Positions 970-57,611 of a stretch of 64,000 bases of DNA are shown in pieces. The position numbers and the translations under genes were made by a program. Under the pieces are notes generated by a model, which was not told where the DNA came from, did not search any database, and saw only the letters and a list, made by a program, of their open reading frames with translations. How positions within the stretch are numbered: the first letter of the stretch is position 1; each line of letters starts with the position of its first letter. This stretch comes from Shigella phage ESh29. The stretch lies in sequence record ON528739; one strand, 5' to 3'.

Positions 970-2481
970 ATGACTGACATTAAAGTACATTTTTATGATT
1001 TTAGTCACGTGAGAATTGATTGTGAAGAAAGTACATTTCATGAACTCCGTGATTTCTTTAGCTTTGAAGCTGATGGGTATCGTTTTAATCCGAAGTACAG
1101 ATATGGCCACTGGGATGGACGAATCCGTCTGTTAGATTATAATCATCTTCTTCCATTCGGCTTAGTCGGGCAAATTAAAAAGTTCTGTGATAATTTTGGC
1201 TATAAAGCCTGGATTGACCCACAAATTAACGAAAAAGAAGAATTATCAAGAAAAGATTTTGATGAATGGCTTTCTAAATTAGAAATCTATTCAGGAAATA
1301 AAAGAATTGAACCACACTGGTATCAAAAAGATGCAGTGTTCGAAGGATTAGTTAATCGTCGTAGAATTCTTAATCTTCCAACATCCGCAGGTAAATCTTT
1401 AATTCAAGCTTTGCTTGCACGTTATTATTTGGAAAATTATGAAGGTAAAATTCTTATCATTGTTCCAACAACTGCTCTGACAACTCAGATGGCTGATGAC
1501 TTCGTCGACTATCGTCTATTCAGTCATGCAATGATAAAGAAAATTGGTGGCGGAGCATCAAAAGATGATAAATATAAAAATGATGCACCAGTCGTTGTTG
1601 GTACATGGCAAACTGTAGTAAAACAACCAAAAGAATGGTTCTCACAGTTTGGAATGATGATGAATGATGAATGCCATCTTGCTACAGGAAAAAGTATTTC
1701 ATCTATCATATCAGGTTTAAATAACTGCATGTTCAAATTTGGTCTATCTGGTTCATTACGTGATGGCAAAGCCAATATCATGCAGTATGTTGGAATGTTT
1801 GGTGAAATATTTAAGCCAGTAACGACTTCTAAGTTAATGGAAGATGGACAAGTAACTGAGCTAAAAATTAATAGTATTTTTCTTCGTTATCCTGATGAGT
1901 TCACTACCAAATTAAAGGGAAAAACTTATCAAGAAGAAATAAAAATTATTACGGGGCTTAGTAAAAGAAATAAATGGATCGCTAAATTAGCTATTAAGCT
2001 TGCGCAAAAAGATGAAAACGCTTTTGTCATGTTTAAACATGTATCACATGGTAAAGCTATTTTCGATTTAATTAAAAATGAATACGATAAAGTTTATTAC
2101 GTATCAGGGGAAGTTGATACAGAAACCCGCAATATAATGAAAACCTTAGCTGAAAATGGTAAAGGAATAATTATAGTAGCTAGTTATGGTGTATTTTCTA
2201 CTGGTATTTCAGTTAAAAATCTTCATCACGTTGTTTTAGCGCACGGTGTTAAATCAAAAATCATTGTATTACAAACAATTGGTCGTGTATTACGTAAGCA
2301 TGGTTCTAAAACAATCGCAACAGTCTGGGACCTCATAGATGATTGTGGTGTTAAGCCAAAATCTGCTAATACGAAAAAGAAATATGTTCATTTGAACTAT
2401 CTTTTAAAACACGGCGTTGATCGTATTCAGCGCTACGCAGATGAAAAATTTAATTACGTAATGAAAACAGTTAATTTATAA
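970..2481 (+). CDS. uvsW: UvsW recombination/repair SF2 helicase, 503 aa
   Basis: Walker A (PTSAGKS), DECH box (MNDECHLATG), helicase C-terminal motifs; N-terminus recognised as T4 UvsW. Confidence 0.95.
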   Translation: MTDIKVHFYDFSHVRIDCEESTFHELRDFFSFEADGYRFNPKYRYGHWDGRIRLLDYNHLLPFGLVGQIKKFCDNFGYKAWIDPQINEKEELSRKDFDEWLSKLEIYSGNKRIEPHWYQKDAVFEGLVNRRRILNLPTSAGKSLIQALLARYYLENYEGKILIIVPTTALTTQMADDFVDYRLFSHAMIKKIGGGASKDDKYKNDAPVVVGTWQTVVKQPKEWFSQFGMMMNDECHLATGKSISSIISGLNNCMFKFGLSGSLRDGKANIMQYVGMFGEIFKPVTTSKLMEDGQVTELKINSIFLRYPDEFTTKLKGKTYQEEIKIITGLSKRNKWIAKLAIKLAQKDENAFVMFKHVSHGKAIFDLIKNEYDKVYYVSGEVDTETRNIMKTLAENGKGIIIVASYGVFSTGISVKNLHHVVLAHGVKSKIIVLQTIGRVLRKHGSKTIATVWDLIDDCGVKPKSANTKKKYVHLNYLLKHGVDRIQRYADEKFNYVMKTVNL

Positions 2482-2493
2482 GGGCTTCGGCCC
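2482..2493 (+). promoter_or_regulatory. GC hairpin (GGGCTTCGGCCC) directly followed by TTTGGAG Shine-Dalgarno of uvsW.1
   Basis: Perfect stem with TTCG loop between the uvsW stop and uvsW.1 RBS. Confidence 0.5.
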
Positions 2494-2506
2494 TTTGGAG
2501 AAAAAG

Positions 2507-2737
2507 ATGTTACTAGAATTTAAACAATTTCTTTATGAAGCTTCTATTGATGAATTTATGGGTAAAATTGCCTCTTGTCAAACATTAGAAGGTTTAGAAG
2601 AACTTGAAGCTTATTATAAGAAAAGAGTTAAAGAAACTGAATTAAAAGATACTGATGACATCTCTGTGAGAGATGCTTTGGCAGGAAAAAGAGCTGAATT
2701 AGAAGATTCAGACGATGAAGTAGAAGAAAGCTTTTAA
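2507..2737 (+). CDS. uvsW.1: UvsW.1-like small acidic protein, 76 aa
   Basis: ATG at 2507 preceded by GGAG; track ORF 2495 begins at a TTG; position directly after uvsW. Confidence 0.7.
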   Translation: MLLEFKQFLYEASIDEFMGKIASCQTLEGLEELEAYYKKRVKETELKDTDDISVRDALAGKRAELEDSDDEVEESF

Positions 2738-2746
2738 ATTAAAAAA

Positions 2747-2769
2747 GGCCCAACCAAAAAGGAAGGGCC
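2747..2769 (-). terminator. Rho-independent terminator candidate (minus strand)
   Basis: GGCCC...GGGCC stem followed by a T-run on the minus strand, downstream of the small ORF ending at 2793. Confidence 0.4.
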
Positions 2770-2792
2770 AAAACTATAGACTAAAGGTCACA

Positions 2793-2960
2793 CTATAGCA
2801 AAAGTTGTGTTTCATTTAATTGTTCTTCAGAACTTTCTGAAACTGGTAGTTCTTTAATGTAATTATAGCAAGGCCCAGGATGTACAGGACCTTTGTCTGT
2901 TTCAACAACCAATGCAGAATCGATTGGAGTTTTACAGACAACACAAATCTTATCTGACAT
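2793..2960 (-). CDS. Small conserved protein, 55 aa (T4 uvsY.-2 position)
   Basis: ORF below the track length cut-off, translated by hand (MSDKICVVCKTPIDS...); occupies the gap between uvsW.1 and the next ORF. Confidence 0.45.
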   Translation of the reverse strand: MSDKICVVCKTPIDSALVVETDKGPVHPGPCYNYIKELPVSESSEEQLNETQLLL

Positions 2961-2988
2961 GATTGTCTCCTCTAAATTATATATCTAT

Positions 2989-3213
2989 TTATATAACTCT
3001 CATATGCATATCAATGCCCATATCTTTAGAATAAAAATATTCATCAAGATATCCGGCAAATTTTCCTTTAACATAAAGTACATCTTCACCACATGGGTGG
3101 TCGGCCAGGATACGAATATCCTGACGCTTGAGATTATACTTCTTCATTAAGAATTGAATTTCCGTTTCAAATTCTTCTTCATAATTAAAAGCATCATCAA
3201 TGCTATATTTCAT
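2989..3213 (-). CDS. Small protein, 74 aa (T4 uvsY.-1 position)
   Basis: ORF immediately downstream of uvsY on the minus strand, abutting its stop. Confidence 0.55.
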   Translation of the reverse strand: MKYSIDDAFNYEEEFETEIQFLMKKYNLKRQDIRILADHPCGEDVLYVKGKFAGYLDEYFYSKDMGIDMHMRVI

Positions 3214-3626
3214 TATTTTCCAGCCTCAAATGCTCGCATGTCTTGAATATGCTTAATAGCAAATCCACGTGATTTAATAGCATCAAGAGCTCCACTACAG
3301 AAATCTAATAAAATCCCCCAATACTGCAGCGAGGTATCAACCTTTAAAACATCCTTATCAGCTGATAGAACTGTTTTCATTTCTGATTTCTCGTAACGAT
3401 CCATACTAAATTCATCACCATCTCCTCGTCCCGAGTAGTAGTCTAATTTAGCTTTAAGAGCAACTTTTTTCTGTGCATCAATTCTAAGCATTTCCTTTTT
3501 AATACTTGAATGCTTATTAAGCCATTTACTATATAACATCACATTATTAGCTGCTTCATACTGTAATTTAGTCGAATCTATAAACACATCTTTCTTCAAT
3601 TCTTCTTGAAGATCTTCTAATCTCAT
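3213..3626 (-). CDS. uvsY: UvsY recombination mediator protein, 137 aa
   Basis: Length and sequence recognised as T4 UvsY; synteny. Confidence 0.9.
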   Translation of the reverse strand: MRLEDLQEELKKDVFIDSTKLQYEAANNVMLYSKWLNKHSSIKKEMLRIDAQKKVALKAKLDYYSGRGDGDEFSMDRYEKSEMKTVLSADKDVLKVDTSLQYWGILLDFCSGALDAIKSRGFAIKHIQDMRAFEAGK

Positions 3627-3692
3627 ATTGTTCTCTATTCAATTGTTATTGGATGGACTTAGATTCATTATACCACGTTTATACGTGAAGCA

Positions 3693-5520: not shown

Positions 5521-6689
5521 GTATGTTACAACGTCCTGGATATCCAAATCTCAGCGTTAAATTATTTGAGAGTTATGACGCTTGGAGTAATAATAGATTT
5601 GTTGAATTAGCTGCTACTATTACCACATTAACTATGCGTGACTCTCTTTATGGTCGAAATGAAGGAATGCTACAATTTTATGATTCTAAAAACATTCATA
5701 CAAAAATGGATGGAAATGAAATAATTCAGATTTCTGTAGCTAATGCAAACGATATTAATAATGTTAAAACACGAATTTATGGATGCAAGCATTTTTCCGT
5801 GTCAGTAGATTCAAAAGGCGATAACATCATTGCTATTGAATTAGGAACTATTCATTCTATAGAAAATCTTAAATTTGGTAGACCATTTTTCCCTGATGCC
5901 GGTGAATCTATAAAGGAAATGCTTGGCGTAATTTATCAAGATCGTACATTATTAACTCCAGCGATAAATGCTATTAATGCTTATGTTCCTGATATTCCAT
6001 GGACTAGCACATTTGAAAACTATTTGTCATATGTAAGAGAAGTTGCTCTAGCGGTAGGAAGCGATAAGTTCGTATTTGTATGGCAAGACATCATGGGAGT
6101 TAACATGATGGACTATGATATGATGATAAATCAAGAACCATATCCAATGATTGTAGGTGAGCCAACTTTAATAGGTCAATTCGTCCAAGAATTGAAATAT
6201 CCATTAGCATATGATTTTGTTTGGTTGACTAAATCAAACCCGCATAAACGTGATCCAATGAAAAATGCTACTATCTATGCTCATTCATTTTTAGATTCTT
6301 CATTACCAATGATTACTACAGGAAAGGGTGAAAACTCTATTGTAGTGTCAAGGTCAGGTGCTTATTCTGAAATGACTTATAGGAATGGCTATGAAGAAGC
6401 TATTCGTCTTCAGACTATGGCGCAGTATGATGGTTACGCTAAATGTTCTACTGTCGGTAATTTTAACTTGACTCCTGGCGTTAAAATTATTTTTAATGAT
6501 AGTAAAAACCAATTTAAAACAGAATTTTACGTTGATGAAGTTATCCATGAATTATCCAATAATAATTCAGTAACTCATCTTTATATGTTCACTAATGCAA
6601 CGAAACTGGAAACAATCGACCCAGTTAAGGTTAAAAATGAATTTAAAACTGATACTACCACTGAAGAAAGTAGTTCTTCCGATAAGTAA
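5517..6689 (+). CDS. 27: Baseplate hub subunit gp27, 390 aa
   Basis: Size and synteny; ATGA overlap with gp51 stop. Confidence 0.9.
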
Positions 6690-7170
6690 TAAAGAAGTTT
6701 CTATTCCTAAGATGGGTCTTAAACATTATAACATTTTAAAAGATGTTAAAGGTCCTGATGAAAATTTAAAGCTTCTTATTGATTCTATTTGTCCAAATTT
6801 ATCACCGGCAGAAGTTGATTTCGTTTCTATTCATTTGCTAGAATTTAATGGAAAGATTAAATCTCGTAAAGAAATAGATGGTTATACTTATGATATTAAT
6901 GACGTTTATGTATGCCAAAGATTAGAATTTCAATACCAAGGAAATACATTTTATTTTAGACCTCCTGGAAAATTTGAACAATTTTTAACGGTGAGCGATA
7001 TGTTATCCAAATGCTTGCTTAAGGTCAATGATGAAGTTAAAGAAATTAATTTTCTTGAGATGCCAGCATTCGTTTTAAAATGGGCAAATGATATTTCTAC
7101 AACTTTAGCAATTCCTGGCCCTAATGGTCCAATAACCGGAATTGGCAATATTATTGGATTATTTGAATGA
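6637..7170 (+). CDS. 28: Baseplate hub distal subunit gp28, 177 aa
   Basis: Internal ATG ([11 protein letters not shown]...) chosen inside track ORF 6595-7170 to give a T4-like length; start uncertain. Confidence 0.75.
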
Positions 7171-8939
7171 AAAAGCCACAAGAAATGCAAACTATGCGTA
7201 GAAAAGTTATTTCAGATAATAAACCAACACAGGAAGCGGCTAAATCCGCTTCTAACACTTTATCTGGACTTAATGACATATCTACGAAATTGGATGATGC
7301 TCAAGCTGCCTCTGAATTAATAGCTCAAACCGTCGAAGAAAAATCGAATGAAATAGTTGGAGCAATTGATAACGTTGAAAGCGCAGTAAGTGATACTACT
7401 GCCGGTTCTGAGTTAATTGCCGAGACTGTTGAAATTGGCAATAATATCAATAAAGAAATAGGCGAATCACTCGGAAGCAAATTAGATAAATTAACGAATT
7501 TATTAGAACAAAAAATTCAAACAGCTGGAATTCAACAGACTGGAACGAGTTTAGCAGTAGTCGAAAATGCTATTCCTGTTAAAGTCGTCGAGGATGATAC
7601 AGCTGAATCTGTGGGTCCTTTATTACCGGCTCCTGAAGCAGTTAATAATGATCCTGATGCTGATTTTTTCCCTACTCCTCAGCCAATTGAACCAAAACAA
7701 GAGTCTCCAGAAGAGAAGCAAAAAAGAGACGCATTTAACTTAAAATTATCTCAAGCTTTAGATAAATTAACAAAGACAGTTGATTTCGGATTTAAGAAAT
7801 CTATTTCAATTACTGATAAAATATCTAGCATGTTATTTAAGTATACCGTCAGTGCTGCTATTGAAGCTGCTAAAATGGTTGCATTGATAATGGCTGTTGT
7901 TATTGGAATAGACCTACTGATGGTTCATTTTAAATACTGGTCAGATAAATTTTCAAAAGCCTGGGATTTATTTAGCACTGATTTTAAAACTTTCTCAAGC
8001 GAAACAGGAACTTGGGGTCCTTTATTACAAAGCATCTTTGAATCTATTGATGAAATTAAAAAGTTCTGGGAAGCTGGAGATTGGGGCGGATTAACAGTAG
8101 CTATTGTTGAAGGACTTGGAAGTGTTCTTTATAATTTAGGAGAGCTTATTCAATTAGGTATGGCTAAATTATCTGCAGCAATTCTTCGAGTCATTCCTGG
8201 CATGAAGGATACTGCTGATGAAGTAGAAGGAAGAGCATTAGAAAATTTCCAAAATTCTACTGGAGCATCTCTTAATAAAGAAGACCAAGAAAAAGTAGCA
8301 AATTATCAAGATAAACGAATGAATGATGATCTTGGCCCAATAGCAAAAGGATTAGACAAAATTGCGAACTGGAAAACTCGTGCATCTAACTGGATTCGTG
8401 GTGTAGATAATAAAGAAGCATTGACTACTGACGAAGAACGTGCAGCAGAAGAAGAAAAATTAAAACAACTTTCACCGGAAGAAAGAAAAAATGCTTTAAT
8501 GAAAGCTAATGAAGCTCGTGCTGCGATGATTCGTTTTGAAAAATACGCTGATTCAGCTGATATGAGCAAAGACTCGACAGTTAAATCAATTGAAGCTGCT
8601 CATGAAGACCTTAAAAAACGAATGAATGATCCGGATTTAAATAATTCACCAGCAGTTAAAAAAGAACTTGCTTCTAGATTTGCTAAAATTGATGCCACTT
8701 ATCAAGAGCTCAAGAAAAATCAACCTGAAGCAAAACCTGAAACTTCTGCTAAATCACCAGAAGCAAAACAGGTCCAGGTGATTGAAAAGAACAAAGCACA
8801 ACAAGCTCCTGTTCAACAAGCATCTCCTTCAATCAATAATACTAATAATGTTATTAAGAAAAATACTGTCGTTCATAATATGACACCTGTCACAAGCACA
8901 ACTGCTCCTGGTGTATTTGGTGCGACAGGAGTTAATTAA
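7167..8939 (+). CDS. 29: Baseplate hub / tail length determinator gp29, 590 aa
   Basis: Size and synteny; ATGA overlap with gp28. Confidence 0.9.
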   Translation: MKKPQEMQTMRRKVISDNKPTQEAAKSASNTLSGLNDISTKLDDAQAASELIAQTVEEKSNEIVGAIDNVESAVSDTTAGSELIAETVEIGNNINKEIGESLGSKLDKLTNLLEQKIQTAGIQQTGTSLAVVENAIPVKVVEDDTAESVGPLLPAPEAVNNDPDADFFPTPQPIEPKQESPEEKQKRDAFNLKLSQALDKLTKTVDFGFKKSISITDKISSMLFKYTVSAAIEAAKMVALIMAVVIGIDLLMVHFKYWSDKFSKAWDLFSTDFKTFSSETGTWGPLLQSIFESIDEIKKFWEAGDWGGLTVAIVEGLGSVLYNLGELIQLGMAKLSAAILRVIPGMKDTADEVEGRALENFQNSTGASLNKEDQEKVANYQDKRMNDDLGPIAKGLDKIANWKTRASNWIRGVDNKEALTTDEERAAEEEKLKQLSPEERKNALMKANEARAAMIRFEKYADSADMSKDSTVKSIEAAHEDLKKRMNDPDLNNSPAVKKELASRFAKIDATYQELKKNQPEAKPETSAKSPEAKQVQVIEKNKAQQAPVQQASPSINNTNNVIKKNTVVHNMTPVTSTTAPGVFGATGVN

Positions 8940-36826: not shown

Positions 36827-36869
36827 ATTATTTTCCTCTTTAATCATCAGCAGTATTGCCGATAGTTGT

Positions 36870-36899
36870 ATAGTACCACAGTCCTTGTGGTATGTAAAC
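36870..36899 (-). promoter_or_regulatory. Early-promoter cassette with ACCACA...TGTGGT dyad in the spacer, minus strand
   Basis: Minus-strand GTTTAC at 36894-36899, TACTAT at 36870-36875, A/T-rich upstream region; about 50 nt identical to the copy at 56997-57047. Confidence 0.55.
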
Positions 36900-36920
36900 C
36901 GTTTTGTGAAAAAATTTTTG

Positions 36921-50733: not shown

Positions 50734-50886
50734 TCAATTAGTTGACTTTGTTATAATATCATCAGACGCTTGATTTGTAAACTGGTCTGTGTTATTTTCT
50801 TCAAAAATTTTTTCTACGAATTCCTTGAACGACTCGCGTTCCTGAGCTACATTATGCTCGATTACCATTTCAAGATTATGACTCAT
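50734..50886 (-). CDS. Small hypothetical protein, 50 aa
   Basis: Hand-translated ORF below the track cut-off; ATGA overlap with the arn stop. Confidence 0.35.
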   Translation of the reverse strand: MSHNLEMVIEHNVAQERESFKEFVEKIFEENNTDQFTNQASDDIITKSTN

Positions 50887-51161
50887 TCGAAATAATCTTC
50901 AATTTCGTAATCATGGACGTAAATCATTATAGTTTTTAATACATCATCAATACTTTTTCCTGGAGCTGGAATTACGTAAAAATATCCTGCTTTTGAGAGG
51001 TCTTTATAAGTTCCAACCAAGAAATCATTATTCTCGAGATGTAATTCTTCAACTAATTCATTAACAATTGAACAGTATAAATTTGGTAGAAACTTATATA
51101 GCTTTTCTAGAATATCAATTTTGATTGTATATTGAACCACAGATTGAGAATCAATAATCAT
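50883..51161 (-). CDS. arn: Arn-like anti-restriction protein, 92 aa
   Basis: 92 aa and adjacent to asiA as in T4; sequence identity not verified. Confidence 0.55.
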   Translation of the reverse strand: MIIDSQSVVQYTIKIDILEKLYKFLPNLYCSIVNELVEELHLENNDFLVGTYKDLSKAGYFYVIPAPGKSIDDVLKTIMIYVHDYEIEDYFE

Positions 51162-51244
51162 AGACCTTCCCCTTATGTTTCTGTTTGCGATTAGATTCTT
51201 TAAACGCTTTCTTCTTATCCTTATGAACAGAAGCTTTATTAAAA

Positions 51245-51463
51245 TTATGTTTTGCGACTAAATTGTTCATAGTGCTGAATTACCTCTCTCAAACATTTGC
51301 ATGTGAATGAAAACTTTTTAGCTACACCACATTCAAATATGTGTTCTCTTAAATCACGTGTATCAGTATATCCCATCTCAACGATAAAATGCCGTATTAG
51401 ATTTTTATCTTTATCATTGAGAGAATTAAAATAATCAGATTTTGAATTAATTTCCCTGGCCAA
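51245..51463 (-). CDS. Hypothetical protein, 72 aa
   Basis: ORF between arn and motA. Confidence 0.4.
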   Translation of the reverse strand: MAREINSKSDYFNSLNDKDKNLIRHFIVEMGYTDTRDLREHIFECGVAKKFSFTCKCLREVIQHYEQFSRKT

Positions 51464-51743
51464 ATTGAATCACCTTCAACTGACGTTTTAACTCTTTTAT
51501 CATCTCTTCGTTCATCGCAATATAAAGATCGCGTAAAGCAGGTTTTAACATTCCATTTACTGGAGAACTAAATGGACATACATAATCTTTTCCTACGAGC
51601 TTTTTAGTGAATTCCATATCACAAAACTGAAATGCAGGTTCATTAGCATAAATTCCCCAATTGGTTGACATCATTTTATTGGCATATTCCAATGCTTGGA
51701 TTTGATTCGTAATTCCGTCAATTTGAAACTTTTTAATATTCAT
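51447..51743 (-). CDS. Hypothetical protein, 98 aa
   Basis: ORF between arn and motA. Confidence 0.4.
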   Translation of the reverse strand: MNIKKFQIDGITNQIQALEYANKMMSTNWGIYANEPAFQFCDMEFTKKLVGKDYVCPFSSPVNGMLKPALRDLYIAMNEEMIKELKRQLKVIQFGQGN

Positions 51744-52204
51744 TAGTAAAGGTCCTCAGAGTAAAGTTCTTTTTCACTACCACCACGTTCAATACGTACT
51801 TGTCCGGCGTAAGTTGCAATAATCATTGCTTCTTCACGTGTCCAATAATTACTATATTGGTCAATAAACCCTTGGTCATCATCACAAACTTGTTGAGTAA
51901 CTAATTGAGGTTTAACTACATCTAAAACTTCTGCCATATCTTTAGAATAATGACGAGCACCTGGAATAATAAGAGTTCGTCCATCTTTTAATTTAAAACG
52001 GTTGGCTGCACAGACAATTCGTCGTTGATACTTTTGGTTTTCATCCCAATATGCAGTCTGCCAACAGATTTCAGGAACTTCTTTCAGAATATCTTCTTCT
52101 GTGCATTTATAACCATGCGCTTTAAATTTTTCAACAAGACTTTCTGGAGTTTCACGAGATAAAGGAACATTCAGCATTTTTAAACGATTAATAAATGGGT
52201 TCAT
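51743..52204 (-). CDS. Hypothetical protein, 153 aa
   Basis: ORF between arn and motA. Confidence 0.45.
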
Positions 52205-52530
52205 TTAAACCATCCTTTAATACGCTGCCACAAAGTTTTCTGTTGAGCTTTGTTAACACCAATTGAGCGAATAACTGGTTGAGATTCCTGGAATTCTTTA
52301 TAATCAGCAAGGTAAATTTCGTAAGCTGCATCTGTAAAGGAACTTATCGCTGCCATAAAATTATTGCGAATACCTACTAGAGCATCTTTACTTTCACGAA
52401 TAATCATGTATTTACCAGTCTTAATCTTTACGATAGTTCCAAGATAAGCTCCATGGTACCAAATATCCCAACCCTCTTGAGTAGGTTCTGCGCAACGACG
52501 AAGTTCATTAACAATTTCTAACTTGTTCAT
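52201..52530 (-). CDS. Hypothetical protein, 109 aa (motA.1 position)
   Basis: ORF directly downstream of motA. Confidence 0.45.
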
Positions 52531-52540
52531 TATTTATTCC

Positions 52541-53176
52541 TCACAGTTCAGATGCTACAGTGATTACTGCTTCAATGTTTTCTGCCGAGCGTTTAATGTC
52601 AAGATACACATTACCGTTTTTAGCGATTTTACAAGACATTCCGATATCAGTAAATTTCTGAATATGATGTTCCATCATTTTATATCCAAAAATTCGCATA
52701 TTTCCATTATTGTTAATTTCAAAATTGCGAATTCCGTGAGTGCGTTTTTCTAAAATAGCAAGATAGTTACTGCGGTAAGTTTCAACCTTTTTAAGAACAA
52801 ATCCATTTTCATCTAAAAGTTTTAACATGAAGTCTTTATCTTCTTCCATATCGGAAGTAATCTCGCGAGCTTTACGAGTTGCTCGTTTTTTCAGCAGTTC
52901 CGGAGCATTTTCCTGTGCATATAAAGTTGCTGCGTTTGAAATAATATCCTGAGCTTCACCAGTAATGATTAATCCATCACCTGATTTCTCCACCAGGCCT
53001 TTTTTAATCAATACCCCAATATTACTATTAACTACTGCGTTACCTAAATCTGGATGCACCTCACGAACTTCTGCAGCTGTAATGAAATCTTTCTTAGCAA
53101 TGGTAATTAAAATCGCAGCAGTTTTTTCATTCAGAACATCGTTAGAAGCTTTGATGATGTAAGTTACTTTAGACAT
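52541..53176 (-). CDS. motA: Middle-transcription activator MotA, 211 aa
   Basis: Sequence and length recognised as T4 MotA. Confidence 0.9.
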   Translation of the reverse strand: MSKVTYIIKASNDVLNEKTAAILITIAKKDFITAAEVREVHPDLGNAVVNSNIGVLIKKGLVEKSGDGLIITGEAQDIISNAATLYAQENAPELLKKRATRKAREITSDMEEDKDFMLKLLDENGFVLKKVETYRSNYLAILEKRTHGIRNFEINNNGNMRIFGYKMMEHHIQKFTDIGMSCKIAKNGNVYLDIKRSAENIEAVITVASEL

Positions 53177-53217
53177 TTTCTAATCTCCGTAATTCTGTAT
53201 CAGTAGTTGATAGTTGT

Positions 53218-53247
53218 ATAGTACCACAGTATGCTTTGGTTGTAAAC
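53218..53247 (-). promoter_or_regulatory. Early-promoter-like element (GTTTAC, 18-nt spacer, TACTAT) for motA
   Basis: Minus-strand GTTTAC at 53242-53247 and TACTAT at 53218-53223; shares the TGTGGTACTATACAACTATCAAC block with other copies. Confidence 0.55.
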
Positions 53248-53265: not shown

Positions 53266-53294
53266 AAATAAAAAGGGAGAGCCGAGGCTCTCCC
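53266..53294 (-). terminator. Rho-independent terminator (minus strand) after gene 52 and the small ORF
   Basis: GGGAGAGCC...GGCTCTCCC hairpin followed by TTTTTATTTT on the minus strand. Confidence 0.7.
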
Positions 53295-53299
53295 TAAAA

Positions 53300-55842: not shown

Positions 55843-56058
55843 TTAATCGTCGCAGTCGACGCTCAATTCCCAAAACTCTTCTACAGTATAAGTTTCAGTA
55901 TCATTTTCAATACAGAAACGTTCATTACTATTATTTGCTAAAGTAGCATTAACTGTCGGTTTCTCGCTAGTGCTCTTAAGAGGTGAAATGCGAATTAACT
56001 GATCGCCGTTATCTAAACAGAAAATTTCACCAACTTTTACATCTTTAAAGATTTTCAT
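55843..56058 (-). CDS. Hypothetical protein, 71 aa
   Basis: ORF between denB and ndd. Confidence 0.4.
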   Translation of the reverse strand: MKIFKDVKVGEIFCLDNGDQLIRISPLKSTSEKPTVNATLANNSNERFCIENDTETYTVEEFWELSVDCDD

Positions 56059-56173
56059 AATTCACCTCAAGGAGTATAAAATCCAAATGCAGTTGTTGAC
56101 CATCCCATCCAATACGGGAAATTTGCGCCAATGTAAAACATGAGAATATAAAACCAACCGCTCAGCAAATTCA

Positions 56174-56392
56174 TCATTTTACACCATTCCAAATTGTTTC
56201 AACCACAGATTTTAAACCATTTTGATGAATATCCATTCCGACTACTGCCATCAAATAGATTCCAACTACAACTGAACCTAGCGCAAAAATCAGCATGAAA
56301 ATGAATAAAGCCGGAAAAATATTATCGAAAAACCATTCAATAAATGTAAAAGCACTGCGTTTACGCTTCATATTTTCCTCACATAAATCCAA
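56174..56392 (-). CDS. Hypothetical membrane protein, 72 aa
   Basis: ORF with two hydrophobic segments. Confidence 0.4.
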   Translation of the reverse strand: MDLCEENMKRKRSAFTFIEWFFDNIFPALFIFMLIFALGSVVVGIYLMAVVGMDIHQNGLKSVVETIWNGVK

Positions 56393-56492
56393 AGTAAACG
56401 TTTAATACATCAATCATTAAAACGATTGGGAATATACTCAAAACTGTTAGTATTATAACTACATTCCATATAGCTTTAATAATCTTTTTCAT
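56379..56492 (-). CDS. Small membrane peptide, 37 aa
   Basis: Start at MKKIIKAIW with GGAGGAA RBS; the longer track ORF 56379-56588 would read through a promoter cassette. Confidence 0.35.
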   Translation of the reverse strand: MKKIIKAIWNVVIILTVLSIFPIVLMIDVLNVYFGFM

Positions 56493-56520
56493 TTTCTGTT
56501 CCTCCGTAGTTGATAGTTGT

Positions 56521-56550
56521 ATAGTACCACGGAAGAACAGTCTTGTAAAC
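56521..56550 (-). promoter_or_regulatory. Early-promoter-like element (GTTTAC, 18-nt spacer, TACTAT), minus strand
   Basis: Minus-strand GTTTAC at 56545-56550 and TACTAT at 56521-56526, followed by the conserved ACAACTATCAACTAC leader. Confidence 0.5.
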
Positions 56551-56766
56551 AACTTTTTAAAAATATTCGTAATAAATGTGAATACCAACTACTACCGCTG
56601 AAACCTGTGCAACCCACCACGCACAAGCAATAAGTACAGAATTCAAAATTTTCATAATAACCTCATCACAAAAGTAAATGTTAAACAAATTACTGGAATA
56701 CTAATTAACCAAACAAAACACCACCATAGTGAACTCATAGTTCAATCTCAACGATTTTCATTTTAC

Positions 56767-56973
56767 TCAATAATCCGCTAAAAGATCAACGATTGCATCA
56801 CGAAGACACTTATTCGCAATACGTTTAAGAGCAATTTCAGTTTCTGAAGCATTTTGAATAATCATTGAATTCAATTCAGCCTCAGCAAACTGAAGTTCTT
56901 TAACTAATTCAGCTTTATATTTTCCTTTCCCTTTCTTAGCTTTTGCTCGTTTTAGTTCAGCTGTAGTAAACAT
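56767..56973 (-). CDS. Hypothetical basic protein, 68 aa
   Basis: Start at MFTTAELKRAK (track ORF 56767-57072 reads through a promoter cassette). Confidence 0.4.
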   Translation of the reverse strand: MFTTAELKRAKAKKGKGKYKAELVKELQFAEAELNSMIIQNASETEIALKRIANKCLRDAIVDLLADY

Positions 56974-57007
56974 TTTATTCTCCAAATCCGTATCAGTTGA
57001 TAGTTGT

Positions 57008-57037
57008 ATAGTACCACAGTCCTTGTGGTATGTAAAC
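57008..57037 (-). promoter_or_regulatory. Early-promoter cassette with ACCACA...TGTGGT dyad, minus strand
   Basis: About 50 nt identical to the cassette at 36859-36909. Confidence 0.55.
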
Positions 57038-57053
57038 CGTTTTGTGAAAATTT

Positions 57054-57611
57054 TTAAATGGAAAGATACCATCCGTTGTAGTTGCTTTTTCTTACAACCT
57101 TACGAAGGTCTTCTCTATCACCGATGAACTTCGGAGTGTACTGGATGACACCTGGATGAATTTCTTTAGTGTTGAATATAATTATACAGTCAGCGACTTG
57201 ATGATTTAGAATGGGCCCTAGATTTATTCCAGAACCATATGGATACTCTCCGCCGCATCCTGTTGTTACAGAAATCCAACGTGAGTCAGTTTGATGTGTT
57301 TTGACTTCTACTCGAAGCCCGCAATATTTTGGATGTGCTAAAACATCCCATGCATATGTATACGGGTCATTAACATCCTCTTGGCCTTTGTTAACATACC
57401 CGCTTAGCCAATCTGCTACCACATACTCGGCATACACAGCGATACGACATCTTTCGATAACTTCTGCCTTATCCTGATTTGGATTTTGTTTTAAAGAGTA
57501 TCTTGCAGTATCAGCAATTTTGACCTTCATTTCACTGGTCAAATCACTGTTCGATAGGGTAAATGTCGGAATCTGAAATAGTCTCTGTAACCCCGGATTC
57601 GTTTTCTGCAT
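57054..57611 (-). CDS. denB: Endonuclease IV-like protein, 185 aa
   Basis: Size and position between rIIB and ndd match T4 denB; start uncertain because it overlaps the upstream ORF by 68 nt. Confidence 0.55.
   Translation of the reverse strand: MQKTNPGLQRLFQIPTFTLSNSDLTSEMKVKIADTARYSLKQNPNQDKAEVIERCRIAVYAEYVVADWLSGYVNKGQEDVNDPYTYAWDVLAHPKYCGLRVEVKTHQTDSRWISVTTGCGGEYPYGSGINLGPILNHQVADCIIIFNTKEIHPGVIQYTPKFIGDREDLRKVVRKSNYNGWYLSI

Follow-up and report, generated by a model that had tools for sequence, protein, structure and literature searches.

We analysed a window of 64,000 nucleotides (nt) from Shigella phage ESh29 (sequence record ON528739), centred on the small genes between arn and motA and in particular on arn.3, whose product appears to begin with a segment related to CmdA, the antitoxin of the CmdTAC defence system. 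The arn region is 97% identical to that of T2, and 669–843 records of T-even-type phages match it in a sequence search; the phage is a T2/T4-like Tequatrovirus. On the minus strand, the genes run motA, arn.4, arn.3, arn.2, arn.1, an unnamed open reading frame (ORF) of 39 amino acids (aa), arn, asiA.1, and asiA, followed beyond asiA on the same strand by 52, ac, stp, ndd, ndd.1–ndd.6, a 68-aa gene, denB, and rIIB. A preliminary description of this DNA had placed four ORFs of 72, 98, 153, and 109 aa between arn and motA, and all four are present on the minus strand with the boundaries it gave. They are not unassignable, as it had held, being the named T4 genes arn.1–arn.4, although arn.1–4 and ndd.1–6 are indeed functionally uncharacterised in the literature. 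It had also considered that all might be well-characterised T4 orthologues with unrelated functions; orthologues exist, but they are uncharacterised genes. Compared with T4 (NC_000866) and T2 (LC348380), the genes, their order, orientation, and overlaps are the same, with 94–100% protein identity for arn.1–arn.4. Each of the four ORFs matches a separate PHROG family (E values of 1e-39 to 1e-74), and published T4 data record early RNA for the orthologues and place Arn.2, Arn.3, and Arn.4 among the early proteins and Arn.1 among the middle ones. Because of the T2 identity and the many matching phage records, the families of their own, and the RNA and protein found in T4, the four ORFs are real, expressed, conserved accessory genes and not chance ORFs.

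These genes are tightly packed (Table 1). The gap between motA and arn.4 is 10 nt, and the genes that follow overlap by 4, 1, 17, 26, 11, and 4 nt, in that order. Only one promoter-like element able to drive transcription from motA to asiA.1 was found, the early-promoter cassette upstream of motA; the search for Mot boxes (MotA boxes) in the arn block found no middle promoter, and the search for the early-promoter cassette found no copy inside the block. A single transcript from arn.4 to arn has been reported in T2 (2026 preprint). Because the genes overlap and no internal promoter was found, we take this unit to begin at the motA promoter and to run as far as asiA.1, so that motA-arn.4-arn.3-arn.2-arn.1-39-aa ORF-arn-asiA.1 forms one early operon, transcribed from the promoter upstream of motA and translationally coupled. 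Arn, the T4 McrBC inhibitor, is encoded in the same operon, and databases often give it and its neighbours one label, but it has no sequence relationship to the products of arn.1–4. There were no cross-hits between Arn and the arn.x proteins, their tblastn matches are separate and non-overlapping, and their PHROG families differ. The label "anti-restriction nuclease" on arn.1–4 was therefore rejected as a propagated annotation. Among related phages, Bas38 (AugustSocin; excerpt 6354-7220) has only 55% (arn.2) and 48% (arn) nucleotide identity to the window, compared with 97% for motA, arn.4, and the arn.3 core, and thus the distal half of the operon occurs as distinct alleles. In Bas35 (WilhelmHis; excerpt 6841-6996), an additional 51-aa ORF lies between arn.4 and arn.3; it is absent from the window, T2, and T4.

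In the AlphaFold2 model of Arn.3, a separate core domain follows short helices at the N-terminus. In a PADLOC scan, the window Arn.3 matched the PD-T4-9_B profile weakly (E=0.0028, residues 4–28), and the sister alleles matched it with E values of 1e-9 to 5e-6. Across the Arn.3 family, 15 of 71 members match (best E=1.2e-9), and each of the ten members tested singly does so, always at profile positions 1–31 of 77. PD-T4-9 is CmdTAC, and its second gene encodes the antitoxin CmdA. According to published work, CmdA consists of two N-terminal helices and an unstructured tail that ends in an LAA degron (ClpXP) and is held by the SecB-like CmdC; once the T4 capsid protein has dislodged CmdA from CmdC, the antitoxin is degraded and the ADP-ribosyltransferase CmdT modifies mRNA. 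CmdA sequences are reported to be highly diverse. Scanning with the Arn.3 N-terminus also found a complete CmdTAC system in Lelliottia wanjuensis (NZ_JASSOQ010000025.1, excerpt 2410-3637), which adjoins P2-like portal and terminase genes and whose A, B, and C components match at E values of 2e-90, 4e-34, and 5e-56. The CmdA of Lelliottia is 63% identical to the Bas36-type Arn.3 over 30 aa (pairwise E=1e-9). We infer the homology of the window allele to CmdA by transitivity through the sister alleles. The first ~31 residues of Arn.3 thus appear homologous to the N-terminus of CmdA, a new relationship that, judged on sequence, is strong for the sister allele and marginal for the window allele.

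The likeness is confined to this segment, in which both proteins are predicted to form short helices. The CmdA tail with its degron was not found in Arn.3: the matches end at position 31 of 77, a folded phage domain of ~110 residues follows in place of the chaperone-addiction tail and LAA degron, and the C-terminus reads SEDLY, whereas true CmdA sequences end in QAA. Nor is arn.3 flanked by a CmdT or SecB-like gene, its neighbours being arn.4 and arn.2; it is encoded by a lytic phage, whereas CmdA is encoded by a P2-like prophage. The module occurs in two allele classes, a CmdA-like class in most clusters and other genera and a diverged T4 type in the window, T4, T2, and T6. Its nucleotide identity is 63–75% where the flanks are 95–98% identical; relative to Bas36, it is 63%, compared with 96–98% for arn.4 and the arn.3 core. 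The module is a sharply bounded divergence island that looks like a recombinational allele swap, and a localised island of this kind is expected of an arms-race interface.

The rest of Arn.3 belongs to a widespread family. Arn.3 matches PHROG 839 (E=4.9e-74), its homologues carry a precomputed PF26092 assignment, and the core motifs are present, arranged over ~95 residues as AAN...RH...QGFxDQ...R..A...LxSExLY. A profile search with the core returned 3356 clusters at 50% identity (1337 at E<=1e-10) and defined a minimal domain of ~85–95 residues, in which R84, H85, Q111, G112, F113, D115, R123, Q135, S149, E150, and Y153 are invariant or nearly so. The core is found in 1615 of 50,697 phage records, covering T4-like, Ackermannviridae, rV5-like, phiKZ-like, and Campylobacter phages, and in one of 72,556 plasmids; the N-terminal module is essentially absent from plasmids. 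The core of Arn.3 defines a large, phage-only family without a solved structural analogue. Pfam, NCBIfam, and PDB sequence searches with ten ORFs returned only DUF7248 and DUF7230, and Arn.1, Arn.2, Arn.4, ndd.1, and the 68-aa protein had no significant profile or fold match in PADLOC, Pfam, NCBIfam, or PDB. Foldseek searches of viral models matched only uncharacterised phage proteins, with a few "large polyvalent protein" matches (E 4e-3 to 5e-2), and the polyvalent-protein paper makes no mention of the family. No recurrent neighbour gene emerged from neighbourhood clustering around 36 non-T4-like homologues, and Pfam scans detected no recurrent fused domain in 10 long members or in 146 family members. 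In a single instance, a family member has a ribosome modulation factor (RMF) domain fused to the core (Pfam E=9.4e-6). The label "C-N hydrolase superfamily" on a Kuttervirus homologue was rejected as being without support, the only candidate cysteine not being conserved.

The preliminary description had proposed the uncharacterised ORFs as anti-defence candidates, an idea that was generic, based on position, and already voiced in the literature. It finds partial support for Arn.3 only; for most of the ORFs, only negative screens bear on it. The co-transcription of arn.1–4 with the anti-McrBC gene arn also counts in its favour. The best explanation overall, which we put forward tentatively, is that these are early-operon genes among which arn.3 encodes a two-part conflict protein with a CmdA-like segment. 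The first ~31 residues of Arn.3 would copy the N-terminal two-helix segment of CmdA, an antitoxin of prophage-borne CmdTAC systems, and would be fused to a stable phage-specific domain where CmdA has its chaperone-dependent, ClpXP-degraded tail. Most probably, this segment would bind a CmdT-type ADP-ribosyltransferase toxin and would keep it neutralised once infection has triggered the loss of the real antitoxin, and differing alleles may be tuned to differing toxin variants. Slightly more doubtful is the full version of this proposal, in which Arn.3 would be a modular counter-defence protein whose module is a degradation-proof toxin-binding end of CmdA, with discrete alleles that T-even phages exchange and that are matched to different CmdTs, the T4-type allele would target a non-ECOR22 CmdTAC, and the PF26092 core would add stability or a second activity. 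Arn.4, Arn.2, Arn.1, and the 39-aa protein are regarded as small early-expressed host-interaction proteins, with no finer commitment.

Phage-encoded antitoxin substitutes are known, including T4 Dmd, which acts against RnlAB and LsoAB, and the pseudo-ToxI RNAs. The logic proposed for Arn.3 is the same, with a stable phage replacement of a labile antitoxin silencing an abortive-infection toxin. In contrast to Dmd, which is unrelated in sequence to the antitoxins that it replaces, the Arn.3 module appears to be homologous to one, in a role that is proposed. The genes themselves are not new, having been on the T4 map for decades and having passed through three recent genome-wide screens without a phenotype. 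The Arn.3–CmdA link makes a vague anti-defence idea specific and gives it defined partners. If the proposal is true, a lytic phage carries part of a defence antitoxin in homologous, stabilised form, and the escape of some T-even phages from CmdTAC would be explained.

Several observations weigh against a counter-defence role. The window allele shares only 12–13 of 31 residues with CmdA (~40%) and gives no pairwise BLASTP hit, and the published CmdTAC account consulted does not show which part of CmdA contacts CmdT. T4, which has the N-terminal allele of the window, is strongly restricted by the CmdTAC of ECOR22, the CmdTAC of strain O112ab:H26 restricts both T4 and T6, and T4 mutants that escape CmdTAC map to alt.-3 and not to arn.3. 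The ECOR22 system restricts all 12 BASEL Tevenvirinae but Bas35 and Bas38, and we compared the alleles of 11 of the 12, leaving out Bas44. Both escapers have alleles of the CmdA-like class, with the linker insertion YT(E/N)YTEEDVL in common, and the T4-type allele is found in restricted phages throughout (7/7 BASEL phages, and T4). Yet the alleles of Bas36 and Bas46 are the most CmdA-like (17–20 of 31 identities) and both phages are restricted; escape is 2/4 in the CmdA-like class versus 0/7 in the T4-type class (Fisher p ~0.11) and is ungraded with similarity. At best, this association between allele and escape is suggestive; differences in the capsid could account for the escape just as well. 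Likeness to CmdA was rejected as a simple predictor of escape from CmdTAC because the two most CmdA-like BASEL alleles are in restricted phages. The distribution of the genes points in the same direction. The core occurs without the N-terminal module in many other large phages, and therefore has a function of its own. Additionally, the spread of Arn.4, the 39-aa ORF, and the core of Arn.3 across genera is far wider than that of arn, and several genomes conserve Arn.4 and Arn.3 better than they do MotA and AsiA, a pattern unlike strain-specific anti-defence cargo. Fitness data add to this. Knock-down of arn.1–4 in T4 by CRISPRi-ART had no fitness effect, the log2 fold changes of arn.1–4 for T4 in the uropathogenic Escherichia coli isolate CFE299 were −0.08 to +0.07 (adjusted p=1), and in Bas37, whose arn.4 is intact, the four genes were non-essential (log2 fold changes of 0.03–0.18, K-12 versus CFT073). 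For the second set of small genes, between ndd and denB, most products are hydrophobic peptides of 28–65 aa encoded in the region removed by the viable deletion sa-delta-9.

The same CFE299 dataset contains clear dropouts, namely nrdC.1 (−4.8) and pseT (−5.3). HIDEN-SEQ transposon data for T4 class arn.1–4 and ndd.1–6 as non-essential, and CRISPRi-ART knock-down of ndd.1–3 in T4 was likewise without fitness effect. In K-12, neither the transposon nor the knock-down screens revealed a phenotype for any of these genes. In tests with T4 and Bas37, arn.1–4 thus proved dispensable, both in laboratory hosts and in two uropathogenic ones. Published accounts up to mid-2026 report no function found for arn.1–4, and the 2026 preprint states that their functions are unknown.

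Alternatively, Arn.4, the core of Arn.3, and the 39-aa protein might be conserved auxiliaries of the early programme in large virulent phages, in host takeover or in nucleic-acid or nucleotide housekeeping, with the core as a small enzyme or ligand-binding domain and the likeness to CmdA as a reused generic helical peptide. In our tblastn survey of 79 viral loci with the operon proteins, the order motA-arn.4-arn.3-(arn.2)-(arn.1)-orf39-asiA is retained in many Tevenvirinae genera that lack arn, with arn and asiA.1 confined to close relatives of Tequatrovirus; in some genomes, identity is 75–84% for Arn.4 and 72–74% for Arn.3, against 34–52% for MotA and ~52% for AsiA. The breadth of the core family noted above, the position of the Kuttervirus core, after the genes for the topoisomerase II subunits and near those for an exonuclease and a phosphatase, the lack of a conditional phenotype in defence-rich hosts, and the invariant polar residues R84, H85, Q111, D115, R123, Q135, and E150, which resemble a catalytic or binding site, all fit such a role. 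However, the core has no fold or family match to any enzymatic class and no neighbour gene that recurs beside it across lineages, and independent inactivation of arn.4 in T4 and T2 (see below) fits an accessory role better. Nor would a housekeeping role explain why 30 residues share 63% identity with a defence antitoxin or why the divergence of the module is so sharply bounded; we consider it rather unlikely.

A different possibility concerns the module itself, which might act as a folding aid or temporary inhibitor of the phage's own Alt, ModA, and ModB, or might be a T-even peptide that the prophage antitoxin borrowed. T-even phages encode three ADP-ribosyltransferases. CmdA is needed for the accumulation of soluble CmdT as well as for its neutralisation, and the module is present across Tequatrovirus and Mosigvirus regardless of sensitivity to CmdTAC, both of which would suit this possibility. 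But CmdT is of the diphtheria-toxin class (H-Y-E/D/Q) and Alt, ModA, and ModB are of the R-S-E class, so that no common binding surface would be expected; moreover, the Arn.3 homologues of many T4-like phages lack the module. We regard this explanation as improbable, and the two-part conflict protein described above as the better account of Arn.3.

The gene models of the window differ from the reference annotations. In T4 and T2, arn.1 is annotated with 43 aa and arn.4 with 68 aa; the window readings of 72 and 109 aa are better. Homologues of arn.1 in diverged T4-like genera have 66–75 aa, an ATG or GTG start, and a conserved N-terminal DYFNSLN motif, and in these the position of the internal Met of T4 Arn.1 is Leu. 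Upstream of the internal ATG, all four substitutions among T2, T4, and the window are synonymous and at third codon positions. Based on the full-length diverged homologues and the exclusively synonymous substitutions, arn.1 encodes 72 aa from a TTG start. This model bears on a regulatory site. According to the 2026 preprint, a RIL-seq study of T2, the host small RNA (sRNA) ArcZ pairs at arn.2 +285 to +294 and shields the RNA from RNase E. Positions 51450-51459 of the window are the exact reverse complement of nucleotides 65–74 of ArcZ from E. coli K-12; the site is identical in T2 and T4, and its position agrees with the published T2 site. With the 72-aa model, the ArcZ site therefore lies in codons 2–5 of arn.1, and the 70-nt "intergenic region" of the preprint with its RNase E site is arn.1 coding sequence. 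Experiments and annotations concerning arn.1 to date all rest on the truncated 43-aa model.

Intact arn.4 (~107–120 aa, with an ATG start and a GAGG ribosome-binding site) is found in 38 of 41 T4-like loci and in T6, and its residues 1–45 are the most conserved stretch of the protein. In T4 (excerpt 7628-7957), the start codon ATG has become ATA, and in T2 (excerpt 7699-8026), a 2-bp deletion shifts the frame, as a second T2 assembly confirms. The conserved first 41 residues of Arn.4 have thus been lost in T4 and T2 by separate events, whereas the window retains the intact protein. In structure prediction, the fold of Arn.4 depends on an N-terminal helix and strands that the T4/T2 form lacks. 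Screens in T4 or T2, the strains that serve most screens, therefore probe a crippled arn.4 allele. The 39-aa ORF, which the preliminary description had overlooked, overlaps arn.1 and arn and encodes a very basic protein; it is annotated in T2, whereas the T4 reference contains it intact without annotating it. It is kept in nearly all T4-like loci examined, a wider spread than that of arn.

Table 1. Genes, domains, and regulatory elements of the motA–arn and ndd–denB regions, in window coordinates
Feature	Position	Strand	Basis or remark
Early promoter cassette upstream of motA	53213-53247	-	Exact cassette match; preceded by a stem-loop at 53274-53295
motA, middle-transcription activator, first gene of the operon	52541-53176	-	98-100% identity to T2/T4 MotA
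arn.4, intact 109-aa form	52201-52530	-	10 nt past the motA stop; GAGG ribosome-binding site
arn.3, 153 aa	51743-52204	-	ORF call
arn.3 codons 1-43, N-terminal helical module	52076-52204	-	Putative homology to CmdA N-terminus; diverged T4-type allele
arn.3 core domain	51743-52075	-	PF26092 / PHROG 839 / VOG0507
arn.2, 98 aa	51447-51743	-	1-nt overlap with the arn.3 stop codon
arn.1, 72 aa	51245-51463	-	TTG start; AAGGTGA ribosome-binding site; 17-nt overlap with arn.2
ArcZ sRNA pairing site, CCAGGGAAAT	51450-51459	-	3' end of arn.2 = arn.1 codons 2-5
39-aa basic ORF, DUF7230	51151-51270	-	Pfam E=1.2e-11
arn, McrBC inhibitor, sole characterised gene of the arn block	50883-51161	-	T2/T4 orthology
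Early promoter cassette before the 68-aa gene	57003-57037	-	Exact match
68-aa soluble helical protein (T2_273)	56767-56973	-	T2 match; absent from T4
ndd.6 (28 aa)	56652-56738	-	Read from sequence
ndd.5 (32 aa)	56557-56655	-	Read from sequence
Early promoter cassette before ndd.4	56516-56550	-	Exact match
ndd.4 (37 aa)	56379-56492	-	Read from sequence
Fused ndd.3/2a (65 aa), DUF7248	56174-56371	-	E=4.8e-20
ndd.2 (36 aa)	56067-56177	-	Read from sequence
ndd.1 (71 aa, acidic, soluble)	55843-56058	-	PHROG match

In the second set, the preliminary description had listed ORFs of 71, 72, 37, and 68 aa. Three of these are genuine, namely ndd.1 (71 aa), ndd.4 (37 aa), and the 68-aa gene that corresponds to T2_273; the "72-aa" ORF is the 65-aa DUF7248 gene, and ndd.2, ndd.5, and ndd.6 had been missed. 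The product of ndd.1 has been detected as an early protein in T4. The region from ndd.2 to ndd.6 (56067-56738) encodes small hydrophobic peptides with PHROG matches. In the window and in the BASEL phages, ndd.3 and ndd.2a form one 65-aa gene for a DUF7248 membrane protein, whereas they are split in T4; the ndd.3/ndd.2a of the T4 reference therefore appears frameshifted. The deletion sa-delta-9, which extends from 52.1 to denB and includes ndd.1–6, is reported to be viable with phage production at half the wild-type rate and to abolish the stimulation of phosphatidylglycerol synthesis by T4.

The peptides encoded by ndd.2–ndd.6 most likely modify the inner membrane rather than inhibit defence proteins of the cytoplasm. 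That ndd.2–ndd.6 and their neighbours are membrane-acting peptides altering envelope physiology (phospholipid synthesis, superinfection, or lysis timing), with no part in anti-defence, is plausible, though somewhat short of an even chance. Their form as hydrophobic single-helix peptides of 28–65 aa, the loss of lipid stimulation in the viable sa-delta-9 mutant, published T4 data recording early RNA with the protein not detected, and the non-essential status of all these genes agree with such a role. However, the lipid phenotype has not been mapped to a single gene of the deletion, and membrane-acting defence systems exist, so that a membrane location is compatible with counter-defence. The 68-aa protein and ndd.1 are soluble, and the 68-aa gene occupies a variable, promoter-flanked slot typical of accessory cargo.

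The early-promoter cassette, GTTTACA-N14-TGGTACTATACAAC, has four exact copies in the window, with none expected by chance. It combines the −35 element GTTTACA, an extended −10 element, TGGTACTAT, and a conserved start region. One copy is upstream of motA; the second set has two, one preceding the 68-aa gene and the other preceding ndd.4, so that the claim of a cassette for each gene of that set reduces to two cassettes for about eight genes. Similar promoter-early stem-loop cassettes of T4-type phages, reportedly described by Arbiol et al. in 2010, are likewise repeated early-promoter units that flank small variable ORFs. A stem-loop precedes the window copies upstream of motA and after gene 32, whereas none was detected at the two copies of the second set. 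The slot between ndd.6 and denB is variable, being empty in T4 and holding a 68-aa gene in the window and T2 and an 87-aa gene in the BASEL phages. The combination of shared cassettes and varying slot cargo suggests cassette-mediated gene shuffling. The cassettes at 57003-57054, before the 68-aa gene, and at 36865-36916, after gene 32, share 52 identical nucleotides.

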